Positions 51,259-56,054 of a stretch of DNA of 64,000 bases are shown piece by piece. The position numbers and the translations under genes were made by a program. Source of the DNA: Picochlorum sp. SENEW3 (lineage: Eukaryota); contig CP120461.1 of NCBI GenBank assembly GCA_034226945.1, positions 868,001-932,000 on the forward strand, given 5' to 3'. Under the pieces are notes generated by a model. That model did not search any database, was not told the origin of the DNA, and saw nothing but the letters and a program-made list of their open reading frames with translations. Numbering within the stretch: position 1 is the stretch's first letter; each line of letters begins with the position of its first letter.

Positions 51259-53079
51259 ATGAGTGATTCTGATAGCATTGCATTCGATTCCCTCGGGATC
51301 GATGCGAAGATTGTGAGGGCGTTGAATAAACGTCAATTTAGACGTGCAACTCGAGTGCAGGCTGCATGCATCCCTAAAGCGTTAGAGGGGCATGATATTG
51401 TGGCACGAGCTCGAACGGGGAGTGGGAAGACGTTGGCATACCTGGTGCCAGCGCTGCAGCGGTTGTTGGAGGTGGACAAGGGGAGGGTGGGGTGGCAGGC
51501 TCTCGTCCTAGTTCCTACCAAAGAGCTGTGTGAACAGGTGTGTCAGGAGGCCAAGTCATTGGCTCTTGCATGTTCAGGGTCTATTCAGGTGACGAGCTTG
51601 ACTGGAGATGGGAGGAGTCTTCGCCAGGCGGCAGTTACAGCTGGTTCTGTTGTTGTGTCGACGCCTGGTAGAGTGGCAGAGCTTATACGGAGCAAGGTTG
51701 TGCGTGGGGATATGCTCGGGTCCAATTTGACCTTTCTTGTGTTGGATGAAGCTGATCTCTTGTTGAGTTATGGATATGAGGAAGATATGGATGTGATTTC
51801 GCCATGCATTCCTCGATCCTGCCAATGCATGCTGACGAGTGCCACCACATCAGAGGATGTGGAGAAGCTGACGAGATTGATTCTCCAAAATCCAGTATCA
51901 CTGGATCTATTGGATGTGACCGACCCAAATAAAAAAGTGTTAGAAGAAGGAAAGGATGATATTGATCACCGTAGAATAGATTTACCATCAGCATCGGGGA
52001 ATCCAGGTTCCCTGACAGAGATGACGGAGCGGCTGCTGAGACTTCTGACGATTCTCAAGTATGGATTAGTGGAGAACAAAGTTTTAATCTTTGTGAATTC
52101 TCCTGATATGGGAATGAGGACGAGGCTGTTCTTGGATGCATTTGGAATACGCTGCTCTGAGATGCACTCAGAAATGCCTCTGAATACGCGAAACCATCTA
52201 TTGCAACAATTTAATAGAGGGCTGTTCGATTATTTGATAGCTACAGATGATGTGCATGGAATGGACGATGCTTCAAAAGGCAAGAAGGGGAAGAAGAACA
52301 AGAAGGATGAGGAGTTTGGTGTGACACGTGGGATAGATTTTAAGGGAGTCAAAACTGTCATCAATCTGGAGCTTCCCTCAAGTATTGATGGGTATACCCA
52401 CCGCGTCGGTAGAACCGGGAGGGCGGGAGAGCATGGGACGGCCATCTCGATCGCGGGAAAGGGAGATGACTCCATCATAAAGGATGTTGTGGCTCGTTTG
52501 GAAATCTCTGGCCAGTCCTTGTTGGAGTTTGATCGCATCACAGCGTCTGCAGTCGAAGGGCTCCGATATCGTGGAGAGGATGTGGCGAAGAGTATTACAA
52601 AATCAGTGATACGAGAAGCGCGAGCAAAGGATATTAAAGGAGAGTTGATGAACTCAAAACGCCTTGCCTCCTTCTTTGAGGAAAGACCATCTGATCTTCA
52701 GCTCCTTCGCCACGATAGGTCGGTGGCATCTACCACGGCAGGGGCTTCAGCCTCACATCTTAAACATGTACCAGCATATCTTCGCGACCCTTCACTCCAG
52801 GGGAAATCCTTTGTTGGCTCATCGGGTGTCGTTGGAGGCAATGGTTTTCTGGCACCACGAAAGAAGAGAAAGACTGACAAGATCGATCCAGTGAAGGGAT
52901 TCATGAGAGCACCAAAGCGTGGGGGTGATAGATTCGAAGAGCCTACAGAAATGGAGATGAGAGCCGAAAAAGCTGCTGAGAAGGAGCGCAAAAAGCTTAA
53001 AAAAGCTGGGAAATTGCCAGGAGAGCCATCATTCGTCCCCAAGAGGAATGTCCGGAGACACAAATCACGCAAACGTTGA
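51259..53079 (+). CDS. DBP9: DEAD-box RNA helicase DBP9/DDX56
   Basis: ARTGSGKT, DEADLLLSYGY, SAT, DEEFGVTRGIDF, HRVGRTGR, LRYRGED, LLRHD, HLKHVPAYL. Confidence 0.92.
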   Translation: MSDSDSIAFDSLGIDAKIVRALNKRQFRRATRVQAACIPKALEGHDIVARARTGSGKTLAYLVPALQRLLEVDKGRVGWQALVLVPTKELCEQVCQEAKSLALACSGSIQVTSLTGDGRSLRQAAVTAGSVVVSTPGRVAELIRSKVVRGDMLGSNLTFLVLDEADLLLSYGYEEDMDVISPCIPRSCQCMLTSATTSEDVEKLTRLILQNPVSLDLLDVTDPNKKVLEEGKDDIDHRRIDLPSASGNPGSLTEMTERLLRLLTILKYGLVENKVLIFVNSPDMGMRTRLFLDAFGIRCSEMHSEMPLNTRNHLLQQFNRGLFDYLIATDDVHGMDDASKGKKGKKNKKDEEFGVTRGIDFKGVKTVINLELPSSIDGYTHRVGRTGRAGEHGTAISIAGKGDDSIIKDVVARLEISGQSLLEFDRITASAVEGLRYRGEDVAKSITKSVIREARAKDIKGELMNSKRLASFFEERPSDLQLLRHDRSVASTTAGASASHLKHVPAYLRDPSLQGKSFVGSSGVVGGNGFLAPRKKRKTDKIDPVKGFMRAPKRGGDRFEEPTEMEMRAEKAAEKERKKLKKAGKLPGEPSFVPKRNVRRHKSRKR

Positions 53080-53131
53080 TAAATAAGAAATTTTATTTCT
53101 TCTCTTGTAATACTGTATTAGTTGCGGAGTA

Positions 53132-53613
53132 ATGGGTAGATTTGGAGGTGGGTTGGTCATGCCAATGCATGCTGCTGTCAACTGCGCTCATCTCGCGCCT
53201 TTATTGTGCGACCATTATACGATAATGTGCAACTCATGTAATTTTTCATTAATTGCATTGCAGGTGGAACCAACAATAGCTCCTTTAATGGTAGGACGAC
53301 CAACTGGCAAAAGGTGAAAAGGATAAAGGCACGAGTGGCAAAGAAGAGATCTGGAGCGAAATCAAAGCACTTGGACACTGCTGTGGAAGGAGTGAGTGGC
53401 AAGAGGACTGGTAAATCCCAGAGGAAGTCCCAGAGGAAGGAAAGGCTTCGACAAAAGGAGCAACAGAATCTGGAGTCTGGGATGGATGTTGATGGTGAGA
53501 AGAAGCCTGCGAAGAACTTGGCAAAAGCATTGAAAAAGACTGGCAGTGGCAAGAAAATCGTTCGAAAGATGATGAGCAAGTCAGAGGGCGAGGTGGATGC
53601 AATGACAGCCTAG
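53132..53613 (+). CDS. Small basic protein (121 aa), possibly Alb1/C11orf98-like ribosome biogenesis factor; intron 53148-53263
   Basis: Phase-compatible splice gives MGRFGGGTNNSSFNGRTTNWQKVKRIKARVAKKR...SGKRTGKSQRK...MDVD; K/R-rich; the family guess is weak. Confidence 0.6.
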
Positions 53614-53617
53614 CAGT

Positions 53618-54886
53618 ATGGAGCAACTGGTACAGGCATTTTTAGAAACATTTAGGGGACTGGGGACTCGGGGGAAACCTCAACCTGCTGAGCATACCAC
53701 CTTGGCTGGTGTAGTGATTAAATTTGATGACACGTATGCTTTGGATGAGACGTTGCTTGGTGGTTCATATGTGTTTGTTGCAATGGCAACGGGAACCAGA
53801 TGCATTCCAGCAGCATCCAGGTGCCCAAAAGGATCCACTGTTCATGATGGCCATGCAGAGGTGTTGGCCAGAAGAGTCTTTAATAGATGGCTACTAGAGG
53901 AGATAGAAAACTGTAGAAATGGTGAAAGATCGCTGATCTTCCTGAAAGATGGAGACAGACCTCCTTGCCTGAGGGATGGAGTGAGTTTTGAGCTACTAAT
54001 ATCAGCTCTTCCTTGTGGAGATGCTTCCATCGTGGAACAACAGGGACGCAAGAGAGGTCGCACTGGTGCTAAAGTTGTCCCTCGCGATGGCCCTGCGAGA
54101 TTGCCAGAGGCTGGTGATGTGGAGAGCCAGGATTGTTCACAAGCGCGTGGGGTTGTTCGAAGAAAACCAGGGAAGGGTTCACCCACATCCAGCGTCTCAT
54201 GCAGCGACAAAATCCTTAAATGGAATCTGTTAGGTTTTCAGGGATGTTTAATGCTACCCTTCATCCAAGAGCCACTGTATTTTAGTAAGATAATTGCTCT
54301 CACAAGTGATGAATGTGGAACACCAGGGAATGTGGACACTGCTGCATCGAGATCAATGCAAAGGGCGCTGTGGGAGCGTGCATGCAACCTTAAGGAATGC
54401 CTTGAAGGATCCATATTCGTTCGACAGACTTTTCCTAGGTTCACTGCGATTTCTGTGAACGCAGCAGTCCTGGAAGAGCACGGTCTTGTGGCATCTTCAA
54501 CAAGGAAAGTCTCCCCAGGAATCTCTGCAATGTGGTGGGCCAAAGCGTCAAAGGACTGGAAGTCGAAACGTCTGGACTATATGTCCCATATTCCTAAAGG
54601 TGATAAGAATTACTGCGAGGTCATTGTTGGAAAAACCGGAGTAAAGATGGGCTTTCAAAAGTCGGCAACAGACCCACCTGTTTGCAGCAAAGCATGTTCT
54701 CGCATTTCACGTGCTTCTATGAGAGACTTGGTGCAGCAAATGTACGATTCTAGAGACGAGAGACTCAATTCTGGCATACTTTCACACGATGAGCTCAAAC
54801 TTTCTGTATGTCCTGAGTACATGGAGGTCTGGAACAAACTCCGGCAACCTGGATCGTCATTATCAAACTGGATTTGTAAATCATGA
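53618..54886 (+). CDS. ADAT1: tRNA-specific adenosine deaminase ADAT1/Tad1
   Basis: GKP..E.T.LAG N-terminus, ATGTRC, HDGHAEVLARR, PCGDAS, RRKPGKG, SCSDKI..WN..G.QG; no dsRBD. Confidence 0.88.
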   Translation: MEQLVQAFLETFRGLGTRGKPQPAEHTTLAGVVIKFDDTYALDETLLGGSYVFVAMATGTRCIPAASRCPKGSTVHDGHAEVLARRVFNRWLLEEIENCRNGERSLIFLKDGDRPPCLRDGVSFELLISALPCGDASIVEQQGRKRGRTGAKVVPRDGPARLPEAGDVESQDCSQARGVVRRKPGKGSPTSSVSCSDKILKWNLLGFQGCLMLPFIQEPLYFSKIIALTSDECGTPGNVDTAASRSMQRALWERACNLKECLEGSIFVRQTFPRFTAISVNAAVLEEHGLVASSTRKVSPGISAMWWAKASKDWKSKRLDYMSHIPKGDKNYCEVIVGKTGVKMGFQKSATDPPVCSKACSRISRASMRDLVQQMYDSRDERLNSGILSHDELKLSVCPEYMEVWNKLRQPGSSLSNWICKS

Positions 54887-54937
54887 TTTACAGCTCGTGT
54901 AATAAATACTATTGTATAGATAATGATGTCTTTGAAT

Positions 54938-56054
54938 CTATGGAATTGGTTTCGATGCAACAATTTTGTCGACAATCCGCGTCAAACTCAATGCACTGGG
55001 ACTTGCTTTTGCAGTTTCGAATATTGAAACGCCCTGCTCTGCAGCCTTGCTCATTTCCAAGTCCATTGGTATCTTTCCTAGAAAAGGGACTCCGAATTCA
55101 TCTGACATTTTCTCAGCAGCACCATCCTTGGCGAAAAGCAGCTCACCATTGGCGCGAATATCCCCAGCATTAATACTGCCAAGAGCTTCACGAATCTTAC
55201 TGGAAACATCATGGCCATCCTGGTCAACAAATGACAGCGAGGCCACCGGCACTGTGAACCCTGACATATTTTCTACAACTCCCAAGATTGGAACGCCAGT
55301 CTTTTTGCAGAAATTTATTTCCTTTCTGACATCAATCAGGGATACCTCTTGCGGCGTTGAAACAATAACTGCCCCAGCCAGATTCCCATGTGCCTTGTGA
55401 CTGGGCAGCAAAAACTGCACAGCCGAAATGTGCTCATCTGATGTGCCGGGGGGCGCATCAATCACAAGATAATCCAGCTTTCCCCAATCCACATCCTTCA
55501 GAAACTGTTTAATGAGGCCATTCTTGCGTGGCCCCCTCCAAATAACTGCATCATCTGGATTTGTGAGCATAAACCCAATGCTCATCACACCAAGATTCTC
55601 CTCGACATAGACAGGAGACCATCCAGAATTGCTATGATGAATTTCCTGCCCTTCCAAACCGAGCATTCTTGGCATTGACGGGCCACATATGTCAATATCC
55701 AGCAGGCCCACTTCCAAACCTTTGGAGGCCAGAGAGAGAGCCAACTGGGCACTCACTGTGGATTTTCCGACCCCGCCTTTCCCTGAAAGTACTAGCACAG
55801 TATTCTTTACATACTGTAATCTTTCAGCGATTGTCTGGAGATCCGGATCTGGACCCTTGGGCGCAGTGGAACAAATCTTCTGGTTGGGGCACCCAGCACA
55901 CGCAGAAGCTTTTCCTGCCTGTTCGCTATTCGTTCCAGGACAACCTGTAAATGCATTATTATGACTTAATGGGTCAACTGTAGATTAGGTATCCGAGAGA
56001 AAACGATAATAGCGTACTCTCTGGTGCATTGTCCGGCACATGCGACGTAGCCAT
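54938..56054 (-). CDS. NBP35: Cytosolic Fe-S cluster assembly factor NBP35; exons 56054-56018, 55944-54938
   Basis: N-terminal CPG...[46 protein letters not shown]. Confidence 0.95.

Follow-up and report, generated by a model that had tools for sequence, protein, structure and literature searches.

A conserved, tightly joined gene pair in Picochlorum sp. SENEW3 and probable bicistronic expression of its ADAT1-type deaminase

How does a eukaryotic cell translate a protein whose start codon stands 4 nucleotides (nt) behind the stop codon of another gene? The question arises in a 64,000-nt stretch of the green alga Picochlorum sp. SENEW3 (the window; GenBank assembly GCA_034226945.1, contig CP120461.1, positions 868,001 to 932,000), in which a small basic open reading frame (ORF1) is followed on the plus strand by a gene for a tRNA adenosine deaminase, ADAT1. 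An earlier reading of the letters alone (the sequence-only reading) had placed the end of a lysine- and arginine-rich ORF of 121 amino acids at 53613 and the ADAT1 start at 53618; both coordinates and the 4-nt gap are confirmed here, and the stretch is single copy in the genome (13.85 Mb, 14 contigs). ORF1 and ADAT1 form a conserved, tightly joined gene pair. The pair probably belongs to the known green-algal bicistrons as an additional case, and we lean towards the view that ADAT1 is made from a bicistronic ORF1–ADAT1 mRNA.

ORF1, ADAT1 and the junction between them

The 366-nt coding sequence of ORF1 specifies 121 residues, including 33 lysines or arginines and 11 aspartates or glutamates. 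Its start codon and first five codons occupy exon 1 (53132..53147), whose N-terminus is shared by EukProt models P0006 and P0008; a 116-nt phase 1 GT..AG intron follows (53148..53263), and exon 2 (53264..53613), with eight internal AUGs, runs to the TAG at 53611–53613. Splicing was read from Logan contigs of four runs from four studies (X1, X5, X7 and X13; 4 of the 19 runs listed), of which X5, X7 and X13 were taken as RNA by their splices or missing intron cover and X1 as DNA, assignments that are ours and not those of the records. The ORF1 intron is the sole plus-strand joint in the RNA contigs (X13, record 13), and X5 has a loose end that fits it. The first letter of record 13 is at 53114, 32 letters before the splice joint, giving ORF1 a 5′ untranslated region (UTR) of at least 18 nt.

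Among 79 ADAT-like metagenome loci examined for ORF1, two carry it (L001 and L002); the other 77 say little, because they are distant (short or 23–36% identical matches) and often short-flanked. To judge from their sequence, both relatives interrupt the same ORF1 codon with an intron (116 nt in L001, 68 nt in L002). The sequence-only reading had named an upstream ORF without conservation as a ground for abandoning its proposal. We found the ORF conserved: protein identity is 90% (L001) and 62% (L002), well above that of four-fold sites, of which 29 of 46 and 8 of 26 are identical, and both ORFs appear to be under purifying selection. One search returned 35 homologues of ORF1 and another 42 cluster representatives; ORF1 also matches EukProt records labelled Picre1 and Picsp_1, which we take to be Picochlorum renovo and P. 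soloecismus. On this comparative evidence ORF1 is a genuine, conserved chlorophyte gene.

What ORF1 encodes is suggested by likeness. Neither ORF1 nor its 42 relatives matched any Pfam family significantly, including PF09135 (Alb1) and PF17719 (C11orf98); a PDB search with the ORF1 profile returned no relative, only low-complexity HDAC2 tails at E values of 2.6 or worse, and the viral and prokaryote collections held none. Two ESM Atlas queries ranked unnamed plant and fungal clusters at the top (0.91–0.94), followed by Alb1 and C11orf98/DUF5564 clusters (0.89–0.92, with 173–184 shared features), at low recognition scores of 1787 and 2080, under the 2300 mark. ORF1 is thus likely to be Alb1/C11orf98-like, a likeness and not a membership, because no Pfam family or solved chain matches it. 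Alb1 (PF09135) and C11orf98, also called RSMC (PF17719), are like ORF1 small, very basic proteins of about 120 residues. C11orf98 is described as a pre-60S factor, a distant counterpart of yeast Alb1, encoded as an alternative ORF of LBHD1 (PMC12759081); the partner of the human gene is unrelated to ADAT1.

The last in-frame AUG of ORF1 stands three codons before the stop (53602..53613). A methionine three residues from the end recurs at all three loci and in the majority of the family, and this Met-x-x-stop tail is probably kept for protein reasons. In L001 (1759–1779) an out-of-frame AUG near the end of ORF1 opens into ADAT1 as a 7-residue extension; its counterpart in the window opens only a 2-codon ORF.

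ADAT1 is an intronless ORF of 1269 nt encoding 422 residues (53618..54886) whose only Pfam match is PF02137 (E 3.6e-49). Its A_deamin domain carries the zinc-binding, catalytic HAE, PCGD and SCSDK motifs, which align to ADAR structures, and there is no double-stranded RNA-binding domain; a 40%-identical orthologue in Picsp_1 bears the name tRNA-specific adenosine deaminase in its source. By these sequence features the second ORF (ORF2) is of the ADAT1/Tad1 type, the enzyme that deaminates A37 of tRNA-Ala. The start at 53618 appears right, because the closest homologues begin at the same methionine or a few residues earlier. This agrees with the sequence-only argument that the GKP motif demands this ATG, the next in-frame methionine lying beyond GKP.

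Gene order, RNA cover and poly(A) signals

The order of an upstream helicase gene (51259..53079), ORF1 and ADAT1 is kept in both close relatives, in which ADAT1 is 75% (L001) and 46% (L002) identical. Synteny and spacing in related algae had been proposed as a check, and they bear the pairing out: the 4-nt spacer of the window (CAGT, 53614..53617), which sets ADAT1 in the +1 frame relative to ORF1, corresponds to 4 nt (CGAT) in L001 and to 11 or 23 nt in L002, where there are two in-frame AUGs, so that the gap never exceeds 23 nt. The helicase–ORF1 gap is 52 nt in the window, 52 nt in L001 and 158 nt in L002.

Linkage can also be followed beyond these loci. In EukProt the Picsp_1 orthologues are numbered consecutively (NSC_01926 and NSC_01925). 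In an indirect comparison between 44 ORF1 and 63 algal ADAT entries, the length of the longest contig was equal in 11 cases; jittered controls (20,000 trials) gave none in 82% of trials and at most 4. The Picochlorum-side clade of an ADAT1 tree holds nine of the 11. The remaining two lengths, 9346 and 2750 nt, belong to its sister group, which includes Nannochloris 'desiccata' (support 89/89, not starred). Equalities above 5 kb arose by chance in 2% of trials; at short lengths chance is a far likelier cause. An equal length points to a shared contig and not to adjacency, and at that level the sequences suggest that ORF1 and ADAT1 are linked across Picochlorum.

RNA cover is continuous across the junction. 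Contigs bridge it in two of the three RNA-like runs, which come from different studies: record 13 of X13 runs gapless from 53114 through spliced ORF1 and ends at 54291, 670 nt inside ADAT1, and record 27 of X7 covers 53425–53868. X5 is compatible with bridging and was not counted, because only 34 letters separate its variant at 53609 from a contig end. Just two joints are listed over 5.2 kb, the ORF1 intron and one intron of a convergent gene. Depth has no cliff at the junction, an observation that we did not use, as contig depth cannot rank genes. On the helicase side the RNA contigs stop at 53087 (X13) and 53053 (X7) whereas DNA-like X1 continues, a weak hint that the helicase is probably on a separate transcript; a helicase–ORF1–ADAT1 tricistron may nevertheless exist, because X13 and X7 break at two different places and at low depth.

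The placement of poly(A) signals is in keeping with a shared 3′ end. In a 600-kb sample of this genome TGTAA occurs within 120 nt after the stop of 72 of 231 long ORFs, compared with 5 of 231 mid-ORF controls, and on these counts it is the genome's poly(A) signal. Past the ORF1 stop the first TGTAA comes after 1262 nt, at the ADAT1 end; of 125 likely terminal stops just 15 are equally bare, as against 73% of 89 control positions within coding sequence. In the window, UGUAA follows ORF2 and none follows ORF1. Both TGTAA sites that had been noticed at the ADAT1 end exist, and they differ in standing: the one at 54875 falls among the final codons of ADAT1 and is missing from L001, and the one at 54898..54902, 12 nt past the stop, is kept in L001 and is the likely shared poly(A) signal.

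In the reading we favour, a transcript would start just 5′ of 53114, lose the 116-nt intron, span ORF1 and ADAT1 and be polyadenylated behind the TGTAA at 54898. The bicistron proposed from the letters alone is to that extent supported, by the junction contigs, the 1262 nt free of TGTAA and the linkage; that both frames lie on a single mRNA molecule, that ADAT1 is translated from it, and by which route, we infer.

Routes to ADAT1 translation and rival explanations

On a shared mRNA, ORF1 would be translated by ordinary cap-dependent initiation, and ADAT1 output would be lower than that of ORF1. Between the two starts lie eight AUGs in the window (four in frame, four out), seven in L001 and six in L002. 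Eight AUGs in 367 nt are not a depletion: 849 coding windows average 9.55, with 42% holding eight or fewer and 0.7% two or fewer. The AUG depletion before ORF2 that marks leaky scanning (Duenas 2025) is therefore not seen here. Scored with a crude matrix from 147 unannotated start-like ORFs, the ORF1 start falls at the 31st percentile in the window, the 63rd in L001 and the 100th in L002, and the ADAT1 start at the 76th, the 53rd and the 1st or 61st; by this crude measure ORF1 has the weaker start in the window only, the opposite in L001, and stands at 100 against 1 or 61 in L002. Plain leaky scanning fits poorly, as had been argued from the internal AUGs alone, because these are undepleted and the ORF1 start is not consistently weak.

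A combination of leaky scanning with reinitiation after short upstream ORFs, on the same bicistronic mRNA, is rather unlikely to be the route. In its favour, it is established in vivo for green-algal bicistrons (PMC11892635), among which 3 of 43 published cases have 10–11 AUGs in ORF1. The 5′ UTR of ORF1 is perhaps only about 18 nt, the start consensus looks weak (an A occupies −3 in 42% of the 147 start-like ORFs compared with 30% of internal AUGs), and of the eight internal AUGs five rank under the 25th percentile of starts. Yet ribosomes would have nine AUGs to pass, three internal ones standing at the 51st–78th percentile, and the AUG number is ordinary while the ORF1 start of L002 ranks at the top. 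Other bicistronic routes are highly improbable.

If the mRNA is bicistronic, termination followed by reinitiation is the route we would expect, and taken together with the mRNA itself it is our tentative choice. A few of the ribosomes ending at the TAG would stay bound and begin again at the next AUG, 4 nt further on. The AUG at 53602 precedes the ADAT1 start by 16 nt, and its context ranks at the 78th percentile in the window, the 88th in L001 and the 7th in L002. It could feed such reinitiation, because ribosomes starting there end at the same TAG after three codons. To ribosomes that scan it acts as a decoy, as it does in every ADAT1 leader of more than 13 nt; if ADAT1 is reached by reinitiation, it would do no harm or serve as a relay. 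That ADAT1 is reached by termination–reinitiation with no viral-type element, with the Met-x-x-stop tail as a 3-codon relay and with a linkage older than Picochlorum, is a fuller proposal and a somewhat doubtful one. The sequence-only reading had preferred termination–reinitiation, and that preference survives by exclusion: the 4-nt spacing is not fixed among relatives, and no cis-element was found.

Several observations weigh against a shared mRNA or against reinitiation on it. Logan contigs are short-read assemblies, in which two overlapping transcripts would look equally continuous. TGTAA occurs inside ADAT1 at +265 from the ORF1 stop in L001 and at +400 in L002, at unrelated positions, and within 200 nt of only 66 of the 125 likely terminal stops. 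Several ADAT1 clusters have no contig of equal length, including P0044 and P0048–P0053, which make up one whole Picochlorum-side clade, and the N. desiccata cluster. The junction lacks an element like the termination upstream ribosome-binding site (TURBS) of viruses, TGGGA occurring only at −136 in the window and nowhere in L001 or L002; it has no shared fold (folding z-scores −1.9 to +1.9) and no excess synonymous conservation. Leaky scanning is favoured by in vivo experiments in Auxenochlorella, where the addition of a single in-frame AUG sharply reduced ORF2 output (PMC11892635). Promoters evidently overlap one gene upstream: the helicase stop lies 52 nt before ORF1, a TGTAA stands at 53106, and ORF1 RNA is already present at or before 53114, so that the ORF1 promoter must sit inside the helicase transcription unit or that unit be longer. 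The argument that the gap leaves no room for a promoter was therefore unsafe, since the 5′ end of ORF1 itself overlaps the helicase 3′ end, and spacing alone does not speak against an ADAT1 promoter inside ORF1.

That last point is the strength of a model of nested transcripts, in which ADAT1 would come from a shorter mRNA with its promoter in ORF1 exon 2 and a shared poly(A) site, its sequence on the long RNA being merely the ORF1 3′ UTR. The continuous contigs fit this model equally, and so do the undepleted AUGs, which would then call for no special translation. We consider it unlikely: an AUG-free ADAT1 leader would have to begin after 53602 and measure at most 13 nt, a longer one would include the 3-codon mini-ORF, well placed and with its stop 4 nt short of the ADAT1 start, the 3′ half of ORF1 shows no extra synonymous conservation (on few sites, with low power), and the tight ORF1–ADAT1 gap next to the relaxed helicase gap of L002 would go unexplained. 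Two separate, overlapping monocistronic mRNAs, with ORF1 polyadenylated inside ADAT1 and ADAT1 starting inside ORF1, could use the TGTAA sites of L001 and L002 or a different signal; non-TGTAA signals must exist, because 59 of the 125 terminal stops lack TGTAA within 200 nt. We hold this arrangement improbable, as the window has no TGTAA until +1262, the sites of the relatives are non-homologous and arise from codons, and no poly(A)-like loose end lies inside ADAT1 among 7 of the 22 loose ends. A single ORF1–ADAT1 fusion protein is suggested by the public model P0006 (EukProt Picre1 NNA_005642.t1), which joins the two N-termini, and by a GT resembling a donor (at 53495) together with an AG resembling an acceptor (ending at 53645), which, by eye, would join the ORFs in frame. 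Read-through alone fails because ADAT1 lies in the +1 frame; as to splicing, the three RNA-like runs hold no such joint, two contigs cross the junction gapless, the acceptor AG is absent in L002 and none of 66 ADAT homologues has an ORF1-like part. P0006 itself is truncated and departs from both frames. A fusion is accordingly very improbable, and P0006 is probably a false fusion model, as often at bicistronic loci. The model attaches about 70 residues from the ADAT1 start region to the ORF1 N-terminus and then stops.

Neighbouring genes and the place of the pair among green-algal bicistrons

The upstream gene, on the plus strand, encodes a 606-residue DEAD-box RNA helicase (Pfam DEAD and Helicase_C), which we take to be DBP9/DDX56-like; at each of the three loci with DNA it stands directly 5′ of the Alb1-like ORF1, and the two would both be 60S-assembly factors. 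The TGTAA at 53106..53110, about 26 nt 5′ of the ORF1 ATG, is the likely helicase poly(A) signal, kept in L001 and absent in L002. The 158-nt helicase–ORF1 gap of L002 contains two short perfect inverted repeats (L002:3399–3430, by eye) that are absent from the window. Downstream, a convergent gene for a NUBPL/NBP35-like Fe-S NTPase (PF10609) lies on the minus strand (54938..56054, the start at 56054 read by eye), with a 73-nt intron spliced in X5 and X13 and a minus-strand TGTAA at 54888. Its stop is 51 nt from that of ADAT1 and only 10 nt separate the TGTAA at 54888 (minus) from that at 54898 (plus), so close that the 3′ UTRs of the two genes must overlap. Nine bases at 54924 are absent from runs X1 and X5.

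A scan for tight gaps, with the window as positive control, found a coding stretch ending within −20 to +20 nt of the start of 13 of 305 long ORFs in the 600-kb sample and of 3 of 32 in the window. Ten of the 13 have donor-like sites and resemble intron splits; the donor-site filter also flags ORF1–ADAT1, and the other cases are therefore not proven introns. At L095:2083–3380 (G000:C9:242083–243380) two same-strand coding-like frames, one of 185 codons and the other of 248, have 7 nt in common; there is neither a donor-like site nor a significant Pfam match, and the locus is a candidate for another bicistron or a frameshifted gene. At L127:4895–6328 (G000:C9:564895–566328) the last exon of Rad9 stops 12 nt before a 316-codon ORF that matches no Pfam family, scores weakly as coding where it begins, and may be the shadow of an opposite-strand gene. 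Two near-identical genes of about 700 codons lie in tandem on the minus strand, 3.6 kb apart, at G000:C9:615513 and 619123.

Bicistrons are common in green algae (PMC7896298, Gallaher et al. 2021; PMC11892635, Duenas et al. 2025). Median lengths in these reports are 291–357 nt for ORF1 and 1113–1185 nt for ORF2, and a small ORF1, a long ORF2 and a short gap form the published anatomy (PMC11892635). ORF1–ADAT1 shares all three as well as the short leader, TGTAA after ORF2 only, the unrelated functions and the preserved colinearity. The published sets show AUG depletion in ORF1 (PMC11892635), and it is here that our pair differs, with neither depletion nor a conserved weak ORF1 start; it is also known from short-read contigs and not from long reads. 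In Auxenochlorella, 8 of 43 listed bicistrons have gaps of 0–5 nt (PMC11892635), so that both the spacing and, given the three with 10–11 ORF1 AUGs, the AUG load of our pair fall within the reported green-algal range. The nearest published geometry is UTEX250_A07.15155/A07.15150, with a 5-nt gap and 11 ORF1 AUGs; its ORFs of 622 and 508 nt are unlike ORF1 and ADAT1, and the annotation file of PMC11892635 has no deaminase terms.

Reinitiation behind long ORFs also has precedents. In Chlamydomonas, unstructured junctions of 6–10 nt allowed a second-position marker to be expressed after first ORFs as long as 654 codons (Onishi and Pringle 2016, PMC5144980). These synthetic TAGCAT and TAGCCAT bicistrons resemble ORF1–ADAT1 in their short, unstructured stop–start junction and long first ORF and differ in being artificial and drug-selected, not native. 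Their authors proposed post-termination reinitiation; a later report reinterprets them as partly leaky scanning (PMC11892635). In selected yeast, 80S reinitiation on bicistrons is reported (PMC11952965). Viral termination–reinitiation offers a further comparison, in which the stop and start are within a few bases, as at ORF1–ADAT1. The calicivirus TURBS has a UGGGA motif 40–80 nt upstream of the stop–start site; both this motif and the conserved structure are missing here.

The sequence-only reading did not know the pair as a described polycistron, and we did not find it in the literature searched, although tight-gap green-algal bicistrons as such are already published. The searchable supplements of PMC7896298 and PMC11892635, functional tables among them, contain no ADAT, TAD1, deaminase or editase entry; supplements sd02, sd08 and sd09 of Gallaher et al. 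lie outside that coverage, and their master table gives identifiers only, with long cells truncated, so that the pair may be listed there. The text of the Picochlorum SENEW3 genome paper does not contain 'polycistron', 'UTR' or 'intergenic'. Two published pairs of comparable size were considered as the same pair and proved to be other genes, UTEX250_A09.22680/22675 (RMI2/Per1) and Cre10.g443105/443100 (LYR/SET).

ORF1–ADAT1 would not be a new class of gene arrangement. On current evidence green-algal bicistrons use leaky scanning and their first ORFs shed AUGs; this locus separates the models of mechanism because it combines bicistron anatomy with an ordinary AUG load, which fits an internal ADAT1 promoter equally well. 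It offers a natural test to tell reinitiation from leaky scanning and from internal promoters, and is either a case of native reinitiation behind a long ORF or a warning that compact algal gene pairs can hide internal promoters. An unnamed chlorophyte family gains a probable identity as an Alb1/C11orf98-like pre-60S factor, and a linkage older than Picochlorum, if true, would tie the output of a tRNA-editing enzyme to the translation of a ribosome-assembly factor.

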